Assembly (NCBI RefSeq): GCF_010692395.1
Contig: NZ_JAAHHS010000023.1
Location: 721-41,760, forward strand
DNA: 41,040 nt
Reading direction: 5' to 3'
Origin: Moorena sp. SIO3H5
Lineage (GTDB): Bacteria; Cyanobacteriota; Cyanobacteriia; Cyanobacteriales; Coleofasciculaceae
Below are positions 9,369 to 41,040 of the stretch, piece after piece. Each line of letters starts with the position of its first letter. Position 1 is the first letter of the stretch. The notes below the pieces were generated by a model. The model was not told where the DNA came from, did no database searches, and worked only from the letters and a program-made list of their open reading frames with translations. The position numbers were made by a program, and so were the translations under genes.

Positions 9369-9557
9369 CGATGTAACCTGTATAGTTTGCTTGACTGCTG
9401 AGTGTTAACCAGCGATGCCTCAGGTGCGACCCGTGGCGAATTTAATTCCCCTACGGAAAACGCACCATTACGGTCTTGGGGGAAACCCCCACTCGCGTTT
9501 TGGATCAAGACAATGAAGATGTAACCTGTATAATTTGTTTCACTGTTGAGTCTTAAC
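9369..9557. repeat. Composite repeat in the mscS upstream region. Two ~40-bp direct repeats (9369-9410 and 9517-9557, GATGTAACCTGTATA[G/A]TTTG..TGAGT.TTAACC) flank copy 3 of the GGTGCG..GAATTTAATTC..CGCACC element (9423-9466).
   Basis: Direct comparison of the two 40-mers shows about 85% identity. The inner element is caGGTGCGacccgtggcGAATTTAATTCccctacggaaaaCGCACC. Confidence 0.6.
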
Positions 9558-10019
9558 CGTTGAGTGTCAACAGTTGCTCCCCCCATTACCCCCGAAGATC
9601 GGCAGAGCTGTTTCATTTTCGATTTAGACTTAGGGGGGCAGAGTAGCAGAGCAGCGGAGCCGAATTATCCGCAAATATTCGGTTTTGACAGAATTTATCC
9701 CTTTCTAATTCTCTATATCTAACCCTGAAATGAAGAAGCCGGGGGTAGTCAACACTCACCAGTAAACAAGGTATAGATAGCGTTTTATTGGTTCAAATTG
9801 AGCCATGTCCTTATTGTTGCCCAAGATTTTCCATCAATAAACATCTTGAACAAAAATTTTGCAAAATCTTTGCTGAATACCCACTCTGCTTTTATCACAT
9901 CTTTATTTCCCTGGCTGATAATTAATTATTCATGGCTGGTATCATCCATAGCTTATTTATCGGTAATGGTATATTTACCAGCCGCATTTGGTATAATTCG
10001 CTTCTGTAAAATTCGGTAA

Positions 10020-10350
10020 AAATATTTATTTTAATAAAAATTATAATTAGTAAGTAATTAAATAATATAGCCAAAATATTACGAAGTATGGATTACCATT
10101 AGGAATTATCATGATTATGATAGTTTTAATTAAAACTGACTTATAACACTTACTTGCTAATTGCTATTCTAATCAAAATAAAATTAGTCTTCGATTCAAT
10201 CGCGTATAATCCTAATATAGTATCGGTAAATCAAGTTATAAAATCGACAATTATTTTAGTAATAAGAATATAAAAAACTAGTCTCACTTGTTATAGATGT
10301 AATTTATATTTTTTTTAAAAACTGACCTCTAATATCTTTTTACTATTCCC
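10020..10350. other. Strongly AT-rich (~80% A+T), non-coding island
   Basis: Composition read directly. There is no ORF longer than 60 aa without stops and it contrasts with about 55% A+T in flanking genes. A TTGACA hexamer lies at its right end (10360-10365). Confidence 0.6.
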
Positions 10351-10398
10351 TAACAAAAATTGACAATAATATCCGTTAATGCATCTGTCGGCGCGTGC

Positions 10399-10584
10399 AT
10401 GATCGATGAGATTTCTATGGCAGACGGCCCTGGAAAACCTGTTGATAGCAAGTGTACATCCCCACCGCAACCAAATAGTATTTGCACCCTAGACATCAAT
10501 GGGTGTGGCAATTCAAGCATTTGCCAGTGTCCTGAGGGGAGCGAATACAATCAGTTATTTGCGTCCTGCGAAATACCCTTGTGA
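10399..10584 (+). CDS. Hypothetical small Cys/Ser/Thr-rich peptide (61 aa from ATG 10399; the track ORF begins at a TTG at 10360)
   Basis: MIDEISMADGPGKPVDSKCTSPPQPNSICTLDINGCGNSSICQCPEGSEYNQLFASCEIPL with six Cys in about 40 residues. Local GC is higher than the surrounding AT island. It is followed by the strong hairpin at 10657-10694. No recognisable family and no signal peptide. It overlaps an antisense ORF of similar length, so the coding status is uncertain. Confidence 0.3.
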   Translation: MIDEISMADGPGKPVDSKCTSPPQPNSICTLDINGCGNSSICQCPEGSEYNQLFASCEIPL

Positions 10585-10656
10585 TACTAGAACCTGAATC
10601 TGTTAGTAATTCTATCAAGTTCCAGGTGATCACAAGTTAGATAATATCACAATTAA

Positions 10657-10694
10657 CAGTAGAGGGCTCACTGCTGAAAGTGAACCCTCTACTG
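10657..10694. terminator. Perfect 10-bp-stem hairpin CAGTAGAGGG-(18 nt)-CCCTCTACTG between the convergent small ORF and the TerB-like gene
   Basis: Inverted repeat read directly. There is no adjacent U-tract. Confidence 0.5.
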
Positions 10695-10758
10695 AATAGA
10701 TTTAGCTAGTTTTGTCAAAATTATTAATTAAGTTAGTTAATATTAATTAATAATCCTA

Positions 10759-11205
10759 TTACCCTTGATTTTTAATTAACATTACGTCTATAATTTTAAC
10801 AGCAGTATCTTCTGATATCTCTAAAGCATGATAAAGCTCGTTTAAAAACTCTTCTTCATCATCGGTAATTTCTCCATCTGCTAAGATAATATCAGTGGCG
10901 ATCGCAAAGGCTGTTCCTTGTAGTTCATGGGGGAGTGATTTGAGGGCTGCACTAAGAAGAGGATCAGAACCTTGCCGCTGCAGGAGCATCAAAAGTCGTT
11001 CAAACATTCTTGCCATTACATCAGCTGAGTAGCTCCTGAACAGCTGCATTCGAGATAAGGCCGTAATAATGGCTTGTACTTCAGAATTAGTCGCGTATCC
11101 GTCAGCAGCACCAGCAATTAATGCGATCGCAGCAAAGGCTTCAGCTGGTCCGAGTGTTGTTTGGCTGTGTTGACGACTAATTGAAATTTTGTCAAACAGA
11201 CCCAT
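10759..11205 (-). CDS. TerB-like (tellurite-resistance TerB / DjlA-N family) protein. ATG at 11205 (MGLFDKISI...) is preferred over the track TTG at 11328.
   Basis: LGPAEAFAAIALIAGAADGYATNSEVQAIITAL...LPHELQGTAFAIATDIILADGEITDDEEEFLNELYHALEI fits the TerB helical fold signature. Confidence 0.65.
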   Translation of the reverse strand: MGLFDKISISRQHSQTTLGPAEAFAAIALIAGAADGYATNSEVQAIITALSRMQLFRSYSADVMARMFERLLMLLQRQGSDPLLSAALKSLPHELQGTAFAIATDIILADGEITDDEEEFLNELYHALEISEDTAVKIIDVMLIKNQG

Positions 11206-17805: not shown

Positions 17806-18500
17806 CATTCAGCGGTCAGCGGTCAGCGGTCAGCCGTTAGTCTTTAGCTGTTCCCGTAGCGTGGGCGTAGCCCATGAGCTAAAAGCTGATAGCTAAAAGC
17901 TGTTCGCGTAGCGTGCGCGTAGCGCATAAGCTGATAGCTGATAGCTGATAGCTGGTAGCTGAATACGTACATGGCTAATAGCTAAGGCAGATAATCCTAA
18001 AGCTTAGTCTATCTTTTTCTAAAGTCTAATTAAGGTTGATGAGAATTTGATTACTCATCAACCTTTTGCTTATTGGATTTTAGGGAGTAGGGAATCGGGA
18101 GTAGGGAATCGGGAATAGGGAATCGGGAATCGGGAATAGGGAATAGGGAATAGGGAATAGGAAAAAAATTATCACAATTACGACACGGATTGCTATACTC
18201 TAAATTAGTAGCTAAAGTCTAGGCAAAAGGCAAAGGGCAAGAGGCAATAGTCGTCAGTTATTAGAGTGGATGAATAATAGAGGATATCAATACTTTTAGC
18301 AAAAAAAGTAAATTTTTTAATTAGTTTATCGGTGACATTTTTTAAACATCAAAACATCAAACTAAAACAAAATTTTACCTCTTGCCTCTTGCCTCTCCTA
18401 AATTCCCTGTTCCCTGTTCCCTCTAAACCAAAATACTATATTCCCGATTACCTACTCCCGATTCCCAATTCCCGATTCCCGATTCCCGATTCCCTAATCA
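17806..18500. repeat. About 700-bp repeat-dense spacer: (CAGCGGT)x4, (GCTGATA)n, two CGCGTAGCG hairpin units, then a large nested inverted repeat. (GGGAATC/GGGAATA)n at 18085-18170 faces (TCCCGATT)n at 18440-18500, and GGCAAAGG.. at 18220-18250 faces CTTGCCTCT.. at 18380-18400, around an AT-rich centre.
   Basis: Read directly. Arms are reverse-complementary heptamer tracts. Confidence 0.8.
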
Positions 18501-21176: not shown

Positions 21177-21287
21177 AATAAGATAGGGTAATTTTCCATT
21201 ATAGCGCTATTGTTTCGTTGTTGGGTTGAGAATGCGATCGCGTAGCGTGGCCTACGGCCAATCGCATCCTGTCAATTACAATTCGTT

Positions 21288-25229: not shown

Positions 25230-25330
25230 TTAAGGTTGTTCGCGTAGCGTGGCCAAAGGCCAAGGTTATTAAGGTTGAAGTTTAGGATGTTGTTCGCGTA
25301 GCGTGGCCTTTTGGCCAAGGTTGAAGGTTA
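25230..25330. repeat. Two copies of the GTTCGCGTAGCGTGGCC-(AAA/TTT)-GGCCAAGGTT hairpin unit (CGCGTAGCG repeat family)
   Basis: Direct repeats about 55 nt apart. Related units occur at 17850-17930, 21236-21262, 34590-34650, 35500-35580 and 39625-39690. Confidence 0.7.
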
Positions 25331-32547: not shown

Positions 32548-34572
32548 ATGGAATCTCTTCTGAATGTTCGATTTTCCATTAACCCTTTCCCAAGGGTTAG
32601 GTTTCAGCGTTCCTTGGGATTGGTTTTGCTAGGTGTACTTACCCTACTGCTCACCCTATTACCATGCTCTACCTTAGCACAGGAATCTTTGGCAAATGGC
32701 ACTAAGAAAGCTCCTGTGGTAGTGGATGGTATTGAATTATTTCAAGTGGGCAACGCTGGCAACTTTAGCGCTACTGAGCGAGCCAATCTGATCAATCAGC
32801 GCTTAGCAAGGGAGGTGAAATCCCCACAAAAACCTAAGTATGTGGACATTGAATATGTCGGGCAAAACGAGGGGATTCTTCGTACCAAGTTTACCGAGCG
32901 CATTCTGGTCACCATTACCAAGGCCGATCAAATTCCTGATACTGATCCTCTTGAGCAAGCCCAGAAATGGGAGAAGCTGATTGAAAGGGCAATCCGGCAG
33001 GGCAAACGACAGCGGATGCCAGATTATAGTCGTCAGGCAGTAAGGTTTACAGCCATAGTGCAGGTGTTGTTAATGCTGTTGTACTTGCTGTTACGCTTCT
33101 TCAGGCAATTTGCCTTGCGGAAACTGACCTCTTGGCTAGGGAATCCGGCTTCGCCTTTTTTCCCTTGGCATGACCCAGCCAAATTATTTCTGGGGGCAGC
33201 CCTGTTAGGTTTACAGCTTATCCTGTGGACTACAGCGATCTTAACCATTAGTGACCTATTTCCCCAAGTTCGCAGTTGGCGTTATGACCTGTTAAACTTC
33301 CTCAAGTCTCCTGTCATTGGTGCAGGAGAAAGCAAGTATTCTGCTATCCAAGTGCTGCTGTTGGTGGTATTAACCGTTGTGCTATGGTTTGTGGTTAGTG
33401 CCCTCACCAGGCTATTGAGGCGTTACGTCTTGGGCAAAAGTGGCGCTGATTCAGGGGTGCAAGAGGTTATTGCTATCCTGACCCAGTATGTCCTGACATT
33501 TTTGGGCATGATTATCATACTGCAAAGTTCTGGGTTGGATTTGAGTTCCCTAACCATTTTTGCCAGTGTCTTAGGGGTAGGAATTGGCTTCGGTGTGCAA
33601 AATATTGCTAACAACTTTATCAGTGGCTTAATTATCACCCTAGAGCGACCGATTCAACTGGGGGATTTTATTAAAGTCAACGATTTGGTGGGAACTGTGC
33701 AGCGCATTGGTTCCCGCAGTACAGAAATTTGCACCTTGGATAAAGTGACAATAATTGTGCCCAATGCCCGGTTTTTAGAAACTGAGGTGATTAACTGGAG
33801 TCACGGTAACCCGATTTCCCGGCTCAAGATTCCTGTAGGAGTGGCTTACGGATCTGATGTGGAGCAGGTCAAGAAGGCACTGTTGGCAGCTGCCAAGAGT
33901 CACCCGGAAGTGTTACTGAGGCCCTATCCCCAAGTTTGGTTTCAGGAATTTGGTGAGAGTTCCCTCAACTTTGAGCTGTTGGTCTGGACTGGAGACCCCA
34001 AGCGGCAGCCTAAAATCAAAAGTGACTTGAACTACCGGATTGAGAAAAGTCTGCGTCGCCATGATATCCATATACCATTTCCTCAACGGGACCTCCATGT
34101 GCGATCGCCTCAGTTAGAGAAATTGCTCACGGCTTGGCTGGGGGAGCGTCAGCCAAAACCGCCAGAAAACCAACTCTATATTCCTAATGGATATCAGTCT
34201 GAGCGGCCCACCCAAGATGCTTTAGTTTCAGGTTTCCTAGAGCCGATGGATGAAGTAGATCTAGATTCTTACCCTACGGCTCCTTTGCAAGAGGATATGG
34301 TAACACTAGACATTGAAACCTTGGTCGAGGAAATGCGTCAACCAGGAGGATTGGATATTAAAGACCGTCGCTATCGTCTCAATAGCTATGGATGCTGTTT
34401 TGTTGGCTCAGAAGCCGTAGATTGGTTGGTAAAACGGTGTAATTCTACTCGGGAAGACGCAGTAACTGTTGGACAGATACTAATTAATAGAGGTATTATT
34501 CATCATGTCGCAGATGATCATCCTTTCCGGGATGATTATTTGTTTTACCGTTTTTATTTAGATGAGAATTAA
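32548..34572 (+). CDS. MscS-family mechanosensitive channel with N-terminal signal peptide and periplasmic domain, and a C-terminal DEP domain
   Basis: MscS core (…ASVLGVGIGFGVQNIANNFISGLIITLERPIQLGDFIKVNDLVGTVQRIGSRSTEICTLDKVTIIVPNARF…). The C-terminus RRYRLNSYGCCFVGSEAVDWLVKRCNSTREDAVTVGQILINRGIIHHVADDHPFRDDYLFYRF matches the DEP (Dishevelled/EGL-10/Pleckstrin) consensus, including the terminal FKD..LFYRF. Confidence 0.8.
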   Translation: MESLLNVRFSINPFPRVRFQRSLGLVLLGVLTLLLTLLPCSTLAQESLANGTKKAPVVVDGIELFQVGNAGNFSATERANLINQRLAREVKSPQKPKYVDIEYVGQNEGILRTKFTERILVTITKADQIPDTDPLEQAQKWEKLIERAIRQGKRQRMPDYSRQAVRFTAIVQVLLMLLYLLLRFFRQFALRKLTSWLGNPASPFFPWHDPAKLFLGAALLGLQLILWTTAILTISDLFPQVRSWRYDLLNFLKSPVIGAGESKYSAIQVLLLVVLTVVLWFVVSALTRLLRRYVLGKSGADSGVQEVIAILTQYVLTFLGMIIILQSSGLDLSSLTIFASVLGVGIGFGVQNIANNFISGLIITLERPIQLGDFIKVNDLVGTVQRIGSRSTEICTLDKVTIIVPNARFLETEVINWSHGNPISRLKIPVGVAYGSDVEQVKKALLAAAKSHPEVLLRPYPQVWFQEFGESSLNFELLVWTGDPKRQPKIKSDLNYRIEKSLRRHDIHIPFPQRDLHVRSPQLEKLLTAWLGERQPKPPENQLYIPNGYQSERPTQDALVSGFLEPMDEVDLDSYPTAPLQEDMVTLDIETLVEEMRQPGGLDIKDRRYRLNSYGCCFVGSEAVDWLVKRCNSTREDAVTVGQILINRGIIHHVADDHPFRDDYLFYRFYLDEN

Positions 34573-34579
34573 TTTAAGT

Positions 34580-34745
34580 ATTCAGCTTAAGCGCTACGCG
34601 CACGCGTGCGCGTTCAGCTATTAGCTTATGCGCGCACTTATCACAGGCTAGAAGCCTGTGCCACGCAAACTACGGTAACAGGCAAAGGCCAACGGCTGAC
34701 CACTGACGGCTGACGGCTGACAGCTGACGGCTGACAGCTGAATAC
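34580..34745. repeat. CGCGTAGCG-family palindromic unit (GCGCTACGCGCACGCGTGCGCG) followed by a (GACGGCT/GACAGCT)x6 STRR
   Basis: Read directly. Confidence 0.8.
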
Positions 34746-34759
34746 TTAGATTAATTTCA

Positions 34760-35263
34760 TTAACATCCTAAAGAATCGCGAGTATCAACACCAGTTATAG
34801 TATTAGTACCAGAAGCTTTTTTGCATAGCTCCTGGTCTTGGTTATAATCCAAAATTACAAAGGTGAAGTCAGCGCCAGTAATATCTGCACCCTTAAATTT
34901 AGATTTCAATATCATTGCCTCTTCAAACACTGCATCGGTTAAGTCTGCTTCCTTGAAAGTAGATCCATTAATGAATGCAAAGGTAAAATCTGCTCCATGT
35001 AGGTTAGCATTCGTGAAATCAACTTTGGTAATGTTGGCACCTATAAACTTAGCCTTGCTCAAGTTGGCTGACTGTAAATTGACATTGCTAAAAACATTCT
35101 CACTAAAGTCTTCACCGGATTTATCCTGACCGCTTAGATCCTTGTTTTCATAGGTAGCGTTAATGGTGGCAGCGCTTTGGGCTTGGGCTGGCAGAGGCAA
35201 CACTAGAATAGTTAGTGCTAGTAGAAAGGCTGCCAGGTGTAAAAAGTACTTACCGTACTTCAT
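34760..35263 (-). CDS. Secreted pentapeptide-repeat protein
   Basis: Signal peptide (MKYGKYFLHLAAFLLALTILVLPLPAQA) followed by A(D/N)LxG/F pentapeptide repeats (NVNLQSANLSKAKFIGANITKVDFTNANLHGADFTFA..). Confidence 0.8.
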   Translation of the reverse strand: MKYGKYFLHLAAFLLALTILVLPLPAQAQSAATINATYENKDLSGQDKSGEDFSENVFSNVNLQSANLSKAKFIGANITKVDFTNANLHGADFTFAFINGSTFKEADLTDAVFEEAMILKSKFKGADITGADFTFVILDYNQDQELCKKASGTNTITGVDTRDSLGC

Positions 35264-35395
35264 GAATTGCTCTAATCCTCCTGTTGATTAAACGTTGCTG
35301 ACAAGGGTAACTATATCAATTTTTGTAGGAGTTGTGAATAGGGCACTATAGGGCAATTTTCAGCAAGGTTTGAGGGACATTGTTTATAGTTTTAA

Positions 35396-35445
35396 GGCAA
35401 TAGGCAATAGGCAATAGGCAATAGGCAATAGGCAATAGGCAATAG
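35396..35445. repeat. STRR (GGCAATA)x7
   Basis: Read directly. Confidence 0.9.
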
Positions 35446-35587
35446 CGATGCTTCAGAAAGTAGTATACTAAGATTACGTAATTTTTTTGGGAAGCGATTG
35501 ACCTTGGCCTAAAGGCCACGCTAGGCGAATGGTCACGCTACGCGATGCTCGGTAGGAGCCGCTACGGGAACGCAAAAAAATAGACTT
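35441..35587. repeat. Copy A of a ~150-bp direct repeat (AATAGCGATGCTTCAG..AGTAGTATACTAAGATTACG..GGGAAGCGATTGACC..GGCCTAAAGGCCACGCTA..GAATGGTCACGCTACGC..GATGCTCGGTAGGAGCCGCTACGGGAACGC..AGACTT)
   Basis: Aligns along its length, with small indels, to 39565-39742 in the same orientation. It also contains CGCGTAGCG-family motifs. Confidence 0.75.
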
Positions 35588-35595
35588 TACTGAGT

Positions 35596-35800
35596 AAAAA
35601 TACTTGTTTAATCAATAGGAGTAGAGTGGGCATCCTGCCCGCGCGGAAATAAGGAGGAAACTGGCAAGATGCCAGTTCCACGCAAGATGCCCGCGCGAAA
35701 ATAAGCATGAAACTGGCAAGATGCCAGTTCCACGCAAGATGCCAGTTCCACGCAAGATGCCAGTTCCAGGGCAAGATGCCCATTTTACAGGTGCGACCCA
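35596..35800. repeat. Array of 18-nt units (GCAAGATGCCAGTTCCAC)x4-5 with embedded hairpins (ACTGGCA-aga-TGCCAGT; GGGCATcc TGCCC) immediately 3' of the giant gene
   Basis: Read directly. Track ORFs 35562-35867 (-) and 35707-35982 (+) are artefacts of this array. Confidence 0.8.
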
Positions 35801-35940
35801 AGGGGGATTTACTCGCCCATGGGAAAGGGCACCTAAAAACTCTTAAAATCATTCCATTATTAAGCAACGCCTACTTTTTCAGTATCCTTGAACAACATAT
35901 TGTCAGTGAATTGCAAACCGCTGTATTTTGGTTTTATAAT

Positions 35941-38900
35941 TTACTCTTCAAACTCCTTAATTGTTTTCATGTATTTTTTTGATGCTCCTTCAGATAATTG
36001 AAGTCTTTGTTCTTTTTTAATGCGAAAATATTCATTATAAACTTCCTGACTTTCTTTCTGCTCAAGTAAATAATCATAAGGACCTTTACCAGACAAAAGT
36101 TTAACTAATATAGGTGAGATTTCAATAGTGACGAATAAGGCAGTTATTAGCCAATTAATATTACGAATATTCGGATCGTCTTTAGATAACTCTTCTAAAG
36201 CAACAAGACGAGCTAAGAAGCCATAGGATTTTTTGTCAATTTTTTCTTGATTCAGTTGTTCTAAGTTACTCTCTGGTGACTGCAAAATAAGATTACGTTC
36301 TTTAAGCTTATCTATTTTATCCTCTTTCTCCTTAACTTTATTATCTAATTCAATAAATTTTTGTTTGATCTCATCTGCATAGTTTCGTTTGTCTTGATAA
36401 ACAATTCCTTTTCCAAGTTGGCCTGTTCCCTGTGTACCTTCTGCTTCTGCATTAGCCGCATATTCTGCATTTTGCCATTCATTTTTGTACTTATTTTTTT
36501 CTATATTTAAGGCTTGAATTTCTTGCTCTAGGTCTTTTATTGGTTCGGTAAGTTCTTCTTTGGATAGTTCATTTTTATCTTGTTCTATTTTCTGGTTAAT
36601 TTCTTTTTCAAAGAGCCTCAACTCAAGGGGTTTAGCAACCACAAAGCTTAACAATAATGCTATTAACAATCGAAGACTTGTTGCTGCAATAAATGGCAAA
36701 TTTAAATTTAAGTCCGTTTCTTTTCTCTTAGAGCTTAAAATTAAAAAACGATCTAAGTTAAAAACTATAAAACTCCAAAACGTTCCTCCTAGACAAGAAG
36801 CTGCTACAGAACCAAATACTGTAAAAAGAGCATAACCACCGGAAAAAATAGCCGTTGTTGATGTTAGCAGAACCGTGGTACCAATTGCTGTATATTTATA
36901 TCGTTCTGTCAAACATTCTTTTTGTGCCAAAATGTGATGATCTGCACCAGCACACCATAGCAAAAATTTTTCTAGTGAATTTAAATTATCGTTAATTGTT
37001 GGAGTCTGTATTAGGTGTTGAAGTTCAGCTGGTAAGCCAATTTCGTTTATAAAAGTACCAACCCCTTCAACACCATAAGTATTCAGAGCACTTTTGATAT
37101 ATTCTGTAGCTCTTTCCTGAATTTGCTCCCGTTGTTGTAAGAAGTCTAAAGCATTATAGTCTTGAGCGGAATTACGGAAGTAATTACCAACCATCGATGC
37201 TAAGACCCTATTCACAAGGTTTTTAATAGAGCTATATTTAACCGCACCCTTAGACAAGGGGCTAAGAACTCCTCCTTCTTCCTCAACTTGCTGAAAACTA
37301 TGAGCATTTGGTGAACCCACACGAGAGATCATTTTAGGAGAATTGTTGGGAGCAATATTAATAACCTGGGTGACTTCAAGATTCAAAATAAAGCCATCTT
37401 TTGAGCGAAGCTTTAATGTGTTCAAATTAGAATCATAGTTGGTTGCTGGTTTATCTCTATTCGTCCAGTCCAAAGTTATTTCATGGGCAGGAACTATTAC
37501 TATATTTTTAACTCTTGTATTGATAGGATGTGTTCCCGCTTCTATTGGTATGTTTTGAATCCCTTTATACCCAATTGGAACGATATTAAACTGAGAACCA
37601 TAAGTATTTTGCTCTTGATTGGCGTGGCTATTCTTACCAACATTGGAGATTAAAACTCCAACTGTTCCAGTTTTAATATTAGTTAAAGGAACTTGTTCAA
37701 CTTCCACAAACCAAGGATTTAAACTCCAAAAACCTTCTTCGATAAATTCTTCTTGTAAACCTCGATAGCCACTTTTGTCAATAAACTCCTGTGGCTCCTG
37801 AAACTTATTATGTCCCTCAATAACTGGTCCTGCAATCTCCCCTCTTGGTAAGGGCTTACCATCAAAAGTAGTAACAATACCAATTTTACCTGATTCAACT
37901 CTGTAAACTTTTAATTGTTCTGGTTTCAGTCCATATTGCTTGGCATTGTCAGTAGTAACTACTGTAAATATTTCAGTGTTTATTCTATAGGAACCTTCAG
38001 TAAGAATTGTGCGCTGTTTACCTTGTTGACCACCGTTGTTGACAAAGGCTTCAGCATTCTGAAAATTATCGCAATCTACAGCTTTACCTAGTATTTGTCC
38101 TGGTGGTAGTTCAGCACCATCTTGAGCAATAACTAGCCCTATCTCCCCTGAGCGAATATTAATTACTGGGACATTATTAACTTTAAACAACTCTGTATTA
38201 ATGTAGTGAGTTCCAGGAGGAATAATTCCTAATTGGTTCCCTTGTTGACCGCCGTTTTTGATAAATGCTTCAGCGTCCTGAAAAGTGTCACATTCAACAA
38301 CTTTACCAAAGTTCTGACCAAGTGGAAGTGGCTGACCATCCCTTGCTTCCACTAACCCTACTTCATTAACTCCAATTTTGATAAGTTCAACTCTCTTAAT
38401 TTTGAAAAGTTCTGTATTAATTGCGTATTTGCCAGTAGTAATAATCTTTAACTGTTGTCCCCTATATCCCCCATTATCAATAAATGCTTGAGCGTCTTCA
38501 AAATTGTTGCATTCAACAGCATCACCAAAGGTTTTTCCAATCGGAAGTGGCTTGCCATCTTTCGCTTCTACTAAGCCAATTTCATAGTCATTAATATGAA
38601 TAATTTTCCTGATTTCAACAGAAAAAAGTTGAGTATTAATCCGATAAATACCATTTCTTAAAATGCCTAACTGCCTACCCCGTTGACCACCATTTTTGAT
38701 AAAAGCACGACCATCTTGAAAGTCATCACATTCTTCGATAACTTTCCCAAAAATTTTACCTGTGGCAAGAGAAGCACCATCGTTGGCGGTTACTAATCCA
38801 ATTTCATCTTTATCAATATGTATAGCCATTTGTTTAACAACTTTATAGCTCAAAGGAGAGTGGAAATGTCTTCCAGGACCAAGAGTATCAACCTGCCAAC

Positions 38901-39021
38901 CCATTTCTCCATTAAGAGCGATTTGACGATTAGATGGTAAAGGACTACCAAACTTTTTATAGACAATTCCAACCTCATCTTGAGAGATTACATAAACGCC
39001 AGGTGCCCGATCAATTGCCAT
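35941..39021 (-). CDS. Large (1026 aa) membrane protein. It has an N-terminal SPFH-start-like module plus about 6 tandem ~73-aa repeats, then an SPFH/band-7 (flotillin-like) core, then 2-3 TM helices, a long K/E-rich coiled coil and a terminal hydrophobic helix. It is AT-rich relative to the genome.
   Basis: Repeat consensus E[IV]G[LI]V.A.DG.PLP.G..FGK.VEC..FQDA.AF[IV].NGG..G.QL.I[IL]..G.Y.INTELF.V occurs 6 times (residues ~72-520). Residues ~560-690 (..DGFILNLEVTQVINIAP..NRVLASMVGNYFRNSAQDYNALDFLQQREQIQERATEYIKSALNTYGVEGVGTFINEIGLPAELQ) resemble the C-terminal half of SPFH domains. TM segments YTAIGTTVLLTSTTAIFSGGYALFTVFGSVAASCLGGTFWSFIVF and LPFIAATSLRLLIALLLSFVVA. ATG 39021 with a GGAG SD 9 nt upstream. 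Confidence 0.6.
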   Translation of the reverse strand: MAIDRAPGVYVISQDEVGIVYKKFGSPLPSNRQIALNGEMGWQVDTLGPGRHFHSPLSYKVVKQMAIHIDKDEIGLVTANDGASLATGKIFGKVIEECDDFQDGRAFIKNGGQRGRQLGILRNGIYRINTQLFSVEIRKIIHINDYEIGLVEAKDGKPLPIGKTFGDAVECNNFEDAQAFIDNGGYRGQQLKIITTGKYAINTELFKIKRVELIKIGVNEVGLVEARDGQPLPLGQNFGKVVECDTFQDAEAFIKNGGQQGNQLGIIPPGTHYINTELFKVNNVPVINIRSGEIGLVIAQDGAELPPGQILGKAVDCDNFQNAEAFVNNGGQQGKQRTILTEGSYRINTEIFTVVTTDNAKQYGLKPEQLKVYRVESGKIGIVTTFDGKPLPRGEIAGPVIEGHNKFQEPQEFIDKSGYRGLQEEFIEEGFWSLNPWFVEVEQVPLTNIKTGTVGVLISNVGKNSHANQEQNTYGSQFNIVPIGYKGIQNIPIEAGTHPINTRVKNIVIVPAHEITLDWTNRDKPATNYDSNLNTLKLRSKDGFILNLEVTQVINIAPNNSPKMISRVGSPNAHSFQQVEEEGGVLSPLSKGAVKYSSIKNLVNRVLASMVGNYFRNSAQDYNALDFLQQREQIQERATEYIKSALNTYGVEGVGTFINEIGLPAELQHLIQTPTINDNLNSLEKFLLWCAGADHHILAQKECLTERYKYTAIGTTVLLTSTTAIFSGGYALFTVFGSVAASCLGGTFWSFIVFNLDRFLILSSKRKETDLNLNLPFIAATSLRLLIALLLSFVVAKPLELRLFEKEINQKIEQDKNELSKEELTEPIKDLEQEIQALNIEKNKYKNEWQNAEYAANAEAEGTQGTGQLGKGIVYQDKRNYADEIKQKFIELDNKVKEKEDKIDKLKERNLILQSPESNLEQLNQEKIDKKSYGFLARLVALEELSKDDPNIRNINWLITALFVTIEISPILVKLLSGKGPYDYLLEQKESQEVYNEYFRIKKEQRLQLSEGASKKYMKTIKEFEE

Positions 39022-39173
39022 AAGAAAAACTCCAATTAGATTAACTAGTTAATAATCAAAATCATACTATTTCGCTACCTTAATTCTTATTATTTTAACG
39101 TGAGTTTGACGAACTGGACAAAGGTGAAAGAGGGAGCATGTCACTTATGCAGCAACATTAGTACTAAATTTAG

Positions 39174-39262
39174 AGAATGGGGAATGGGGAATGGGGAATG
39201 GGGAATGGGGAATGGGGAATGGGGAATGGGGAATGGGGAATGGGGAATGGGTAATGGGTAAT
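39174..39262. repeat. STRR (GGGAATG)x11 with degenerate GGTAATG tail, in the giant-gene upstream region
   Basis: Read directly. Track ORF 39141-39389 is an artefact. Confidence 0.9.
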
Positions 39263-39330
39263 AGGTATAGCAGTCGCCAGGGCAGTTAGGACATGACAAA
39301 AGTCTCAAACCTAAGTAAGCGCAAGAGTTT

Positions 39331-39366
39331 GACTTCTGACTTCTGACTTCTGACTTCTGACTTCTG
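39331..39366. repeat. STRR (GACTTCT)x5
   Basis: Read directly. Confidence 0.9.
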
Positions 39367-39564
39367 CTGTAATAGGGGGAGCATCTCACAATAGCCGAGT
39401 ATTTTTACTTTTTCTATAGCCCTCTCATGGGTAATTGCTTGCTAATCATGGTAAATAGTTGATCTGTTTTGCAACTAATACTTGCTCATATCTCGCATTT
39501 TTGTTGTTTTGTCAAGTAGTTCATGTGTTCGCCAAATTTGACCTGCTCCCGATCCATCCGATGA

Positions 39565-39742
39565 CAATAGCGATGTTTCAATAAGTAGTATATAAGTTAC
39601 GGAATTCTGTTGGGACGCGATTGACCTGGGCCTTTAGGCCACGCTACGGGAATGGTCACGCTACGCTCCGGAAGCGATGCTCGGTACGAGCCGCTACGCG
39701 AACGCATTCTGGGGCACTTCCGGTACATGGAAAAACAGACTT
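39565..39742. repeat. Copy B of the ~150-bp direct repeat (see 35441-35587)
   Basis: CAATAGCGATGTTTCAATAAGTAGTATATAAGTTACGGAATTCTGTTGGGACGCGATTGACCTGGGCCTTTAGGCCACGCTACGGGAATGGTCACGCTACGCTCCGGAAGCGATGCTCGGTACGAGCCGCTACGCGAACGC....AGACTT. Track ORF 39621-39947 overlapping it is probably spurious. Confidence 0.75.
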
Positions 39743-40030
39743 GAGCAGTTACATCGAAGCGATCAGGCAAGCATACCCATTCTCAGCCAGGGTAAACCCC
39801 TCGAAATTTGTCTCAAAAGTTACAGCTAAAAGGGAAACCGCCGTAAAAAGATTTGGTCGATTTTTAGAAAGGGGTTTTGACAACCGGATTTGGGCTCATA
39901 TAGTAAATAGGTTAGTTTTCAGTATAAGTTATAACATACTTTTGTAACATTTACTGATATAGGGCTGTCATATCCTGCATGTTTGGCTCTACTACCTATA
40001 CGACATTGAGTTTGAACAAAAATCTAGGAA

Positions 40031-40254
40031 TTTTACATGAGGTTTTACATGAGGTTTTACATGAGGTTTATGAGGTTTTACATGAGTTTTATGAGGTTTT
40101 ACATGAGGTTTATGAGGTTTTACATGAGGTTTATGAGGTTTTAGATGAGGTTTTACATGAGGTTTGACATGAGTTTTATGAGGTTTTACATGAGTTTTAT
40201 GAGGTTTTAGATGAGGTTTGACATGAGGTTTTACATGAGGTTTTACATGAGGTT
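40031..40254. repeat. Minisatellite of alternating 12-nt (TACATGAGGTTT) and 9-nt (ATGAGGTTT) units, about 21 units, about 350 nt upstream of the GT2 start
   Basis: Read directly. All units are multiples of 3, so both strands give open frames (track ORFs 39979-40167 + and 39992-40357 - encoding (KPHV)n). These are judged non-coding. Confidence 0.85.
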
Positions 40255-40603
40255 TATAAGTTGACAAACACTTTGAATTAGATTTAATATATTGAAGCAA
40301 GTTAAATTTCCTTGGTTTAATACAATTAGGAGTTGTGAAACAGATAAAAAAAATCATGCCCTGGCATCTATAGTAAGTACTAAATAATCAGCTATCAGCT
40401 GTTACCTTGTTATCATTTTGCTCAAACCGGGGTGCCGATTAATGGCAAGCTCTATGAGCTATACCAAGAATCAGAAAAGGTGGAAGAATACCGCCAATCC
40501 CAAGGTAAGCTAGATGTATGTGAAGGTTGCACAGTTTGGTGTTATTTGATTCCCAGCTTCTTTATGGGTGTGGACAAATATTGGTGGTTGAATCAAGTTA
40601 CCT

Positions 40604-41040
40604 ATGCCAGCGAATTTCTGGCCCGAAAACGATTCTTACAACGAGCTTGACCCACTCAATTCTCTGTTGTCAGACGTTGATTTAACAGAGGATCTGGAGA
40701 CGGAGGTGGAGACAACTACTTTATCTCTACCATCCCGGTTTCAAGGTCGTAGACGCAAGGCCGCTCTAGTTCTCACAATGGTTTGGAGCGGTACTATTGC
40801 CTTGAATTTACTTTCTTGGGGCTCCTTGTTTGTATTGGGGCTGACTACAATTATGGGTATTCATGCCTTGGTGATAGTTTTTGCTAAACCCAGGGAAAAA
40901 ATTTCCCAGATCCAGGGTGATTATCCCTATGTATCCGTGTTGGTGGCGGCAAAAAATGAGGAAGCTGTCATCGGCAATTTGGTGGAAAATCTTTGTAATT
41001 TAAAATATCCAGATGGAAAATATGAAGTCTGGATTGTTGA
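40604..41040 (+). CDS. Family 2 glycosyltransferase (cellulose-synthase-like / GT-A), 5' part only; it runs off the right edge
   Basis: Manual translation from ATG 40604 gives MPANFWPENDSYNELDPL...RRRKAALVLTMVWSGTIALNLLSWGSLFVLGLTTIMGIHALVIVFAKPREKISQIQGDYPYVSVLVAAKNEEAVIGNLVENLCNLKYPDGKYEVWIVD. That is N-terminal TM helices followed by the start of the GT2 domain (PxVSVLV.A.NEE.VI......L.YP....EV.VVDD). It overlaps track ORF 40432-40650 in another frame, which is therefore probably spurious. Confidence 0.7.
   Translation, partial: MPANFWPENDSYNELDPLNSLLSDVDLTEDLETEVETTTLSLPSRFQGRRRKAALVLTMVWSGTIALNLLSWGSLFVLGLTTIMGIHALVIVFAKPREKISQIQGDYPYVSVLVAAKNEEAVIGNLVENLCNLKYPDGKYEVWIV

Follow-up and report, generated by a model that had tools for sequence, protein, structure and literature searches.

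A repeat-SPFH–DUF4407 fusion gene of Moorena and its predicted resemblance to the wall and shoulder of vaults

Introduction

The shell of vaults is built from the major vault protein (MVP), in which nine beta-domains of about 55 aa precede a 'shoulder'. This shoulder is an SPFH domain, and membrane-bound vaults touch the membrane at a site C-terminal to it (PMC13100048). MVP forms a closed 78-mer through the N-terminal dimerisation of two halves. According to recent literature, a rod of beta-domains mounted on an SPFH domain is unique to vaults. Here we analyse a gene of the cyanobacterium Moorena sp. SIO3H5, found in a stretch of 41,040 nucleotides (contig NZ_JAAHHS010000023.1, positions 721 to 41,760; hereafter 'the window'), whose product carries tandem beta-rich repeats, an SPFH domain and a DUF4407 module with transmembrane (TM) helices in a single chain. 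It is a lineage-specific fusion within an abundant, undescribed family of proteins that we call repeat-SPFH.

The protein departs from MVP in several respects. It is bacterial; it has five repeats and two partial units, which are about 73 aa long and contain a short helix each; and it has no detectable sequence similarity to MVP, lacks a cap-helix and cap-ring and carries an integral-membrane module. Its anchor lies C-terminal to the SPFH domain, an orientation like that of membrane-bound vaults (PMC13100048). Moorena also has a separate, true MVP homologue, F4Y3B4 (PMC3762200, 10.1101/872010). As for the SPFH proteins that form cages (flotillin/FloT/YqiK, HflK/C, QmcA, stomatin, prohibitin and erlin), they differ from the window protein in that its first beta-subdomain appears to have been amplified at least five-fold, its partner is DUF4407 rather than NfeD or FtsH and is fused in cis, and the N-terminal anchor and coiled-coil cap are gone. 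DUF4407 proteins are normally free-standing and 400-450 aa long, whereas the copy in the window is fused behind the SPFH domain and is about 100 C-terminal residues shorter than its closest relatives.

A third set of described systems comes from comparative genomics. Kaur, Burroughs, Iyer & Aravind (2020) reported Band7-like domains on vWA proteins as 'superstructure-forming' modules of cyanobacterial conflict systems, as well as cyanobacterial GUN4 domains fused to kinases, caspases, trypsin and TIR domains (PMC7159879). Members of the repeat-SPFH family resemble the vWA/MoxR/VMAP systems in that some are themselves vWA fusions (P0005, P0009 and P0034) and one locus (L012) has vWA, PP2C and kinase-GUN4 genes. 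The window locus differs from them: no vWA, MoxR ATPase, VMAP or GUN4 gene is present among the neighbours scanned.

Results and discussion

Domain organisation and origin of the fusion

The gene and its parts are as follows.

35941..39021, minus strand: repeat-SPFH::DUF4407 fusion gene, an open reading frame (ORF) of 1026 aa delimited with its Pfam domains
38806..38976, minus strand: short N-terminal SPFH-start-like unit, aa 16-72, with no TM segment before it
37666..38805, minus strand: five tandem beta-rich repeats, aa 73-452, predicted to form an MVP-like rod (R1, aa 73-146; R2, 147-219; R3, 220-292; R4, 293-378; R5, 379-452)
36994..37665, minus strand: SPFH/Band 7 domain, aa 453-676, whose own first beta-subdomain is homologous to the repeats
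36919..36993, minus strand: fusion junction, aa 677-701, placed by alignment with free-standing DUF4407 proteins
36055..36918, minus strand: DUF4407 module (PF14362), aa 702-989

A first-pass annotation made from the sequence had proposed an SPFH/band-7-like core and a tail of TM helices and coiled coil that might be DUF4407-like. Pfam bears out both proposals, with Band_7 (PF01145) at aa 466-676 (79.3 bits, curated cutoff 23.6) and DUF4407 at 220.7 bits against a cutoff of 31.3 (E 3e-65, profile positions 5-296 of 297). An NCBIfam search with the fusion protein gave nothing meaningful, and PHROGs matched the SPFH part to phrog_200, 'lipoprotein' (E 2e-10), with no more than weak coiled-coil matches besides.

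Elsewhere the two halves are encoded by separate genes. A search with the C-terminal 336 aa retrieved DUF4407 proteins that stand alone, 402-454 aa long, in Waterburya, Nostoc, Microcystis and other organisms; the contigs that encode them are equal in length to those with the repeat-SPFH homologues. The SPFH domain ends with '..GLPAEL', and the stretch that follows it, NLNSLEKFLLWCAGADH, aligns with the N-terminus of these free-standing proteins, 'MKEQLNxLEKFLLWSSGADH' (aa 677-700). In Waterburya (L006), Microcystis (L007-L009), Nostochopsis (L010) and metagenome contigs, a repeat-SPFH gene is followed on the same strand by a DUF4407 gene after a gap of 51-395 nt. When the junction region (aa 560-860) was used in an HMMER scan of 1.84 billion representative proteins, the Moorena cluster alone spanned both halves. 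These comparisons show the gene to be a fusion of two neighbouring genes specific to the Moorena lineage. The position of the TM region C-terminal to the SPFH core, noted in the first-pass annotation as without precedent, is real and is explained by this fusion of neighbouring genes.

The fusion appears to have been accompanied by losses. Of the 120 top homologues, 61 have an N-terminal TM segment, every one of the closest unfused proteins among them, and hydropathy analysis of the window protein found no hydrophobic segment before aa 700. Unfused SPFH partners have a coiled coil and Gly-rich tail of 200-300 aa after the SPFH domain (e.g. P0022 and P0057), and the fused DUF4407 is without the last ~100 residues of its closest DUF4407 relatives. 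These comparisons indicate that neither the N-terminal TM anchor nor the C-terminal coiled-coil cap survived the fusion, and that the protein is now anchored on the C-terminal side of the SPFH domain. The two module genes were probably joined in the Moorena lineage by a deletion of about 0.9 kb.

Could the gene be a decaying, non-functional remnant of that two-gene deletion? The loss of the anchor, of the cap, of the last ~100 aa of DUF4407 and of the GUN4 partner described below would fit such a remnant, as would a ratio of nonsynonymous to synonymous substitution rates (dN/dS) somewhat above that of neighbouring genes (0.29-0.55 for the fused gene in four Moorena lineages, 0.25 for two neighbouring genes). 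Against this, orthologues of 1025-1026 aa with 90-94% protein identity occur in Moorea/Moorena metagenome-assembled genomes, M. producens 3L and marine metagenomes, with at least five independent Moorena assemblies represented, and the ORF is intact in every Moorena assembly seen. Furthermore, when the window gene is one of the pair compared, each of the three regions gives a dN/dS of 0.23-0.56, with values of 0.8-0.9 confined to the SPFH segment in two low-dS pairs, and the terminator-like hairpins downstream have been kept. Purifying selection therefore maintains the fused gene; pseudogene status was rejected on dN/dS, and the remnant explanation is very improbable and largely refuted.

Predicted fold of the repeat-SPFH half

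The full repeats are 73-86 aa long. Units start at aa 16 (the short one), 73, 147, 220, 293 and 379, and the last unit, at aa 453, belongs to the SPFH domain. R1-R4 share 47-58% identity with one another and 33-40% with R5, and the DNA of the region has a 219-nt periodicity. The tandem repeats proposed earlier are thus genuine, although the count of six becomes five full repeats plus the first unit of the SPFH domain itself. The SPFH-start-like module that had been seen at the beginning of the protein corresponds to the short unit at aa 16-72. In a targeted test on three sequences, a hidden Markov model of the repeat detected the first strands of the SPFH domain (aa 484-516, 11 bits) as well as the N-terminal unit, and each unit shows the same pattern of strands in the AlphaFold2 (AF2) model of aa 1-700. 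The resemblance between the repeat and the first SPFH strands, which had been put forward as an inference, is borne out by both; they support the idea that the repeat is an amplified first beta-subdomain of the SPFH domain. Two weak Pfam matches of R4, to CshA_repeat and ATP-synt_ab_Xtn (E 0.003-0.006), were below the cutoffs and were treated as noise.

The AF2 model of this half has a mean predicted local distance difference test (pLDDT) score of 86.8 (43 homologues). The repeat units are followed by a predicted SPFH domain with an alpha/beta fold and then by a long helix. Compared with the PDB by Foldseek, the model retrieved full-length MVP at ranks 1-11, i.e. in 11 of the 13 top matches (E 5.6e-13 to 2.4e-9, ~800 aligned columns), and the MVP R1-R7 fragment with a TMt of 0.64. 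Prohibitin, stomatin, erlin, HflK/C, flotillin and QmcA align with the SPFH part only. In the model, the fold and the domain order are those of MVP, a beta-repeat rod followed by an SPFH shoulder, so that the N-terminal half is predicted to have the same order and fold as the MVP repeat domains and shoulder. A sequence search of the PDB with the whole fusion protein gave 0 matches at E<=1.

The DUF4407 half

The DUF4407 half is predicted to comprise three TM helices (~aa 701-803), an antiparallel coiled-coil hairpin (aa 805-914) and a fourth TM helix (aa 950-976), followed by a C-terminal helix in the AF2 model. Charged residues (NLDR, E..P) are conserved within the predicted TM helices. The tip of the hairpin is a conserved Gly-rich loop, EAEGTQGTGQLGKG (aa 859-872, nt 36406-36447), with the conserved form EAEGTxGTGxxGKG. 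This loop is near-invariant and bears a superficial likeness to a P-loop (GxxxxGKG). From the positive-inside pattern we infer that both termini are cytoplasmic and that the hairpin lies on the far side of the membrane. The literature on DUF4407 is uninformative, as it mentions the domain in passing only.

The wider family and its GUN4 partners

Repeat-SPFH proteins form 4363 database clusters at E<=1e-3, and at least 497 loci were confirmed in a metagenome scan. The amplified-repeat architecture, which the first-pass annotation had considered new among SPFH proteins, must therefore be viewed differently, since such proteins are abundant and their predicted fold is that of MVP. The family itself was not found described in the literature on DUF4407, GUN4+CHAT+SPFH, vault-like+SPFH or Sll1021. 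Its members have 2-12 repeat units, and some are fused to vWA (1200-1790 aa, up to 12 repeats) or STAND NTPase domains. Among the matches listed, a large two-repeat subfamily of ~600-650 aa, with an N-terminal TM segment, an SPFH domain and a coiled-coil tail, comes from soil, rhizosphere and other environmental metagenome contigs (L035-L100); its loci have no GUN4 or DUF4407 neighbours. A 4-6-repeat group, also among the matches listed, occurs in other environmental metagenome samples. The two-repeat, apparently non-cyanobacterial subfamily may represent the ancestral form of the family.

Elsewhere in cyanobacteria, the repeat-SPFH and DUF4407 genes usually come after a gene for a GUN4-domain protein. 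Such a gene, in the same orientation as the repeat-SPFH gene and no more than ~2 kb upstream of it, was located in 22 non-Moorena loci. The Pfam-verified partners are Pkinase+GUN4, Peptidase_C14+GUN4, CHAT+GUN4, TIR+CHAT+GUN4, Trypsin+GUN4 and GUN4 alone, and Trypco1 adjoins the Trypsin+GUN4 version. X-GUN4, repeat-SPFH and DUF4407 genes thus make up a conserved and undescribed cyanobacterial triad; neither this triad nor MVP-like repeats are mentioned by Kaur and co-workers, whose text contains the word 'vault' 0 times (PMC7159879). The triad gives DUF4407 a first functional context. It also suggests that GUN4 domains are not limited to chlorophyll synthesis and could be adaptors or sensors of stress or cell-death modules in bloom-forming and filamentous cyanobacteria, for instance Microcystis, Nostoc and Moorena.

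Several individual loci deserve mention. The closest unfused homologue (75% identity; L019, 946-8017) is carried by an element whose other products include a ResT/TelK protelomerase, ParA, a PIN toxin and an integrase; Trypco1 and Trypsin+GUN4 genes are directly upstream of it, and there is no DUF4407 gene downstream. A 1722-aa member with 12 repeats, named 'VWA domain-containing protein' by NCBI, is part of an apparent operon (L012, 5997-18439) in which TIR+CHAT+GUN4 comes first, followed by the giant protein, two unknown genes, VWA, PP2C and Pkinase+GUN4, with an EAD10 protein and an integrase nearby. Six homologues with 36-39% identity and 2-4 repeats are found on IMG/VR viral contigs of 25-310 kb (L101-L106).

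Proposed function

We consider it probable, if well short of certain, that the segment between the flanking repeats contains one functional gene in which Moorena has fused parts of a conserved cyanobacterial module, a repeat-SPFH rod and a four-TM DUF4407 protein. Its product would most likely oligomerise into a scaffold tethered to the membrane, one that derives from a stress or conflict module of cyanobacteria. The first part (aa 1-676) is a flotillin-like SPFH protein whose first beta-subdomain was amplified into what is predicted to be a stiff rod ending in the SPFH alpha/beta domain, and the second part (aa 677-1026) is DUF4407, predicted to have four TM helices and a long coiled-coil hairpin on the far side of the membrane. 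By analogy with the solved SPFH cages and with MVP, such chains would most likely associate side by side and form a ring or half-cage at the cytoplasmic face of the membrane. In the unfused relatives, the cage would be anchored by the N-terminal TM segment and closed by the C-terminal coiled-coil cap, and it would enclose or regulate DUF4407, a pairing that can be likened to HflK/C with FtsH or to QmcA with NfeD. The GUN4-fused kinase, caspase, CHAT, TIR or trypsin protein encoded upstream would be a client that docks on the scaffold or is controlled by it, making the whole a stress or conflict module of the cell-death type. The Moorena fusion would operate without the N-terminal anchor, the cap and an adjacent GUN4 partner. 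As its anchor is C-terminal to the SPFH domain, the repeats would face away from the membrane. The existence of a natural fusion argues that repeat-SPFH and DUF4407 proteins act jointly in physical contact. In its predicted appearance and working, the fusion protein can be likened to the wall and shoulder of MVP; membership of the MVP family is not established.

A number of observations weigh against this proposal or against parts of it. Regarding the likeness to MVP, global TM-scores are low (~0.33), because the rods differ in curvature. Pfam Vault (PF01505 and related) and MVP_shoulder (PF11978), domains that true MVPs do carry, gave 0 matches with the whole protein at E<=1 and with single repeats at E<=10. 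In hhalign, the family reached a probability of 0.4% (E 0.14) against a vertebrate-only MVP profile, a shallow profile that does not make this a strong negative, and the family profile matched PDB sequences at a best E of ~0.02, in the coiled coil only. As for assembly, the Moorena protein is devoid of the coiled-coil region that holds canonical SPFH cages together, DUF4407 coming directly after '..GLPAEL'. The AF2 model of DUF4407 is of moderate quality (pLDDT 69 overall, 87-90 in the hairpin), and Foldseek found nothing significant for it (best E 0.13), the non-significant matches being ABC-transporter TM domains, PspA/Vipp1, F-BAR and XaxAB. Concerning the conflict role, the defence-protein models of PADLOC-DB 2.0 gave 0 families at E<=1, and no GUN4 gene is adjacent in the window or present among the genes called at the Moorena loci. 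The conflict-system role may therefore not apply to the fused gene.

The same body of evidence bears on a different role, that of a membrane-disrupting effector of abortive infection or cell death, with DUF4407 as a dormant protein able to form pores or lesions and the repeat-SPFH part acting as its sensor or latch. The recurrent linkage to caspase, CHAT, TIR, trypsin and kinase-GUN4 proteins, the fusions to vWA, PP2C and STAND NTPase, and a distribution that is AT-rich, patchy and island-like all point in that direction. So do the charged residues in the predicted TM helices, the conserved Gly-rich tip loop and the weak, non-significant structural echoes of the XaxAB/YaxA pore formers and of PspA/Vipp1. 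The empty PADLOC search, the lack of a significant structural match for DUF4407, the absence of a partner effector gene at the Moorena locus and the passing nature of the literature on DUF4407 speak against it, and we regard this role as unlikely.

Conversely, the protein could be a housekeeping organiser of flotillin-type microdomains with an unusually long N-terminal spacer and no part in conflict. Its Band_7 domain and the Joint Genome Institute label 'YqiK' agree with such a role, and the two-repeat forms of ~600-650 aa, flotillin-like by their N-terminal TM segment and coiled-coil tail, are common in soil metagenomes without GUN4 or DUF4407 neighbours. In flotillin-type operons (YqiK/YqiJ, FloT/YuaF), however, an NfeD gene is adjacent, and none was found among the window neighbours or the genes called in related loci. 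Moreover, the cyanobacterial multi-repeat clade is tightly linked to GUN4-effector genes, the composition of the gene is atypical, and the Moorena protein has no flotillin-type coiled coil. A housekeeping role is accordingly still less likely than that of an effector.

Returning to the scaffold that we favour, a bolder extension can be imagined. The repeat-SPFH family might be a prokaryotic counterpart of the vault shell, or a relative of its ancestor, with the 'MVP domains' having arisen by tandem duplication of the first beta-subdomain of an SPFH domain. Its members would form tall, half-vault-like membrane cages, used by cyanobacteria as a platform that restrains DUF4407 and GUN4-tagged kinases, caspases or TIR proteins, and the Moorena protein would be a hard-wired 'inverted' cage, anchored C-terminally of the SPFH domain like membrane-bound vaults. 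This is speculative, and in our estimation unlikely to be right in full. Nevertheless, a large bacterial family with an SPFH-derived repeat offers a testable route from an SPFH half-cage to a vault-type wall.

Composition, flanking repeats and acquisition of the gene

The gene had been perceived as AT-rich compared with its neighbours, and measurement agrees: its GC content is 0.355 and its GC content at third codon positions (GC3) 0.239, whereas the 22 other ORFs of the window have a mean GC3 of 0.393 (standard deviation 0.062; z = -2.5). The AT-richness is equal across all four parts of the gene, and the orthologue of Moorea sp. SIOASIH (L001) has the same GC3. In Waterburya, the homologous operon has GC3 values of 0.23 and 0.19 in a locus of 34% GC, which match that of the fusion gene. 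The homologous operon of Microcystis is likewise AT-rich relative to its neighbours, so low GC may be a trait of the family.

The gene is bracketed by repeats and simple arrays, listed here in order.

35395..35445: (AGGCAAT)x7.3 heptamer array found by Tandem Repeats Finder, abutting the left flanking repeat
35440..35580, plus strand: left (3'-side) flanking direct repeat
35636..35780, minus strand: 3' hairpin array (52-nt unit x2.1, 35636-35743; 18-nt unit x3.6, 35716-35780)
39175..39366: heptamer arrays of the short tandemly repeated repetitive (STRR) type in the 5' leader, (GAATGGG)x12.6 at 39175-39262 and (TGACTTC)x5.3 at 39330-39366
39565..39712, plus strand: right (5'-side) flanking direct repeat, with a GC-rich core (~39620-39697) that is absent from the orthologous copy in L001-L004

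The bracketing by same-orientation repeats of ~150 bp thus stands, the two copies in the window, aligned from 35440-35580 and 39565-39706, being 82.6% identical over 144 columns (blastn E 3e-37), even if the right end formerly placed at 39742 was somewhat generous. The STRR leader and the 18-nt hairpin units were both recovered by Tandem Repeats Finder. Two terminator-like stem-loops are present on the gene's strand in the 3' array (35735->35705 and 35679->35657).

Each flanking repeat consists of a head of ~57 nt, a GC-rich hairpin core and a tail. Head and tail are present on both sides in the window, L001 and L002; the core is missing from the right copy in L001 and L002, and the left copy of L002 has a shortened one. 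Within the window, the core motif CCACGCTACGSGAAC turns up seven times at unrelated intergenic positions, against an expected 0.05. When 185,579 species genomes were scanned with the head, five matches came up: both flanks in M. producens 3L, one in Moorena SS36440bin_2 and two unrelated, chance-like ones. The core is therefore a dispersed small hairpin repeat and the head is locus-specific. The genome-wide search suggested earlier consequently has a split answer, the head not being ubiquitous and the core being dispersed; a view of the entire ~150-nt flank as an intergenic repeat found everywhere was therefore discarded where the head is concerned and retained for the core. Copies of the motif ..GGCC(N3-4)GGCCACGCTACGCGAAC.., which also forms the core of the flanking repeats, are located at 17850-17916, 21236-21250 and 25238-25306, all on the minus strand. 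RNA folding of both flank copies on both strands gave z values of -1.4 to +0.1, with no sign of a structured RNA, and Rfam found nothing in 34500-41040 apart from a lone match to MIR1887 at E 0.89.

These data are relevant to the proposal, made in the first-pass annotation, that the gene is a horizontally acquired, mobile cassette of ~4.1 kb with the ~150-nt direct repeats as its ends. This proposal is compatible with our preferred reading, that of a fused scaffold gene, only as a statement on origin. The atypical GC3 and its equality with that of the Waterburya operon are in keeping with a cassette, as are the element-borne closest unfused homologue, with its protelomerase, ParA and integrase, and the confinement of the repeat head to this locus; direct repeats flanking an insert are moreover the expected product of a single crossover with a circular intermediate. 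On the other hand, the flanks are direct rather than inverted and no integrase or transposase gene adjoins the fusion gene in the window; the flanks therefore do not resemble those of a transposable element or a miniature inverted-repeat transposable element. Pentapeptide-repeat and MscS-DEP genes adjoin the gene in the window as in L001, M. producens 3L and Moorena SS36440bin_2, so at least three further Moorena assemblies share the location of the gene. The core is dispersed and is independently inserted or absent in orthologous repeats, the operon is AT-rich relative to its neighbours in Microcystis too, and no empty site was found, no genome-wide search for one having been made. Finally, the window copies differ more from each other (17%) than orthologous copies do between species; the duplication is therefore older than the separation of these Moorena lineages, and any such event must be old. 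We thus find a mobile cassette possible but doubtful. The part of the proposal that endures is the atypical composition, with which an old horizontal acquisition is plausible, and the data do not support a cassette that is mobile today. The gene probably arrived by an ancient horizontal transfer that preceded the divergence of the Moorena lineages sampled.

Neighbouring genes and other features

Two further features lie beside the gene.

32548-34572, plus strand: neighbouring gene for an MscS-type mechanosensitive channel with a C-terminal DEP domain
39092..39121, minus strand: promoter-like site ~70 nt 5' of the ATG, a consensus match only

A scan for promoters and terminators gave site counts that are not above those of shuffled sequences, and only the two 3' hairpins are noteworthy. 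The combination of MscS with a C-terminal DEP domain is unusual for a bacterium, and the gene is kept beside the fusion gene in L001, L016 and L017. In L001-L004, a large gene of the SpvB/TcdB/RHS toxin type is found ~2 kb upstream of the fusion gene and divergent from it, at a site that in our sequence falls just beyond the end of the window. Its Tc-toxin-like product is 2005-2197 aa long (1938-7955 in L001, 32-6625 in L002).

Other parts of the window share the AT-richness of the fusion gene. A gene for a 23S rRNA intervening-sequence protein (PF05635; 25758-26120, minus strand) has a GC3 of 0.22, and a second AT-rich patch, with a GC content of 0.33, is present at ~9.5-11 kb (9500-11000). 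Upstream of the locus, an imperfect tandem array of 12/21-nt units (TTTTACATGAGG / TTTTACATGAGGTTTATGAGG, ~20 copies) occupies 40031-40255 and yields spurious ORFs at 39979-40167 (plus strand) and 39992-40357 (minus strand).

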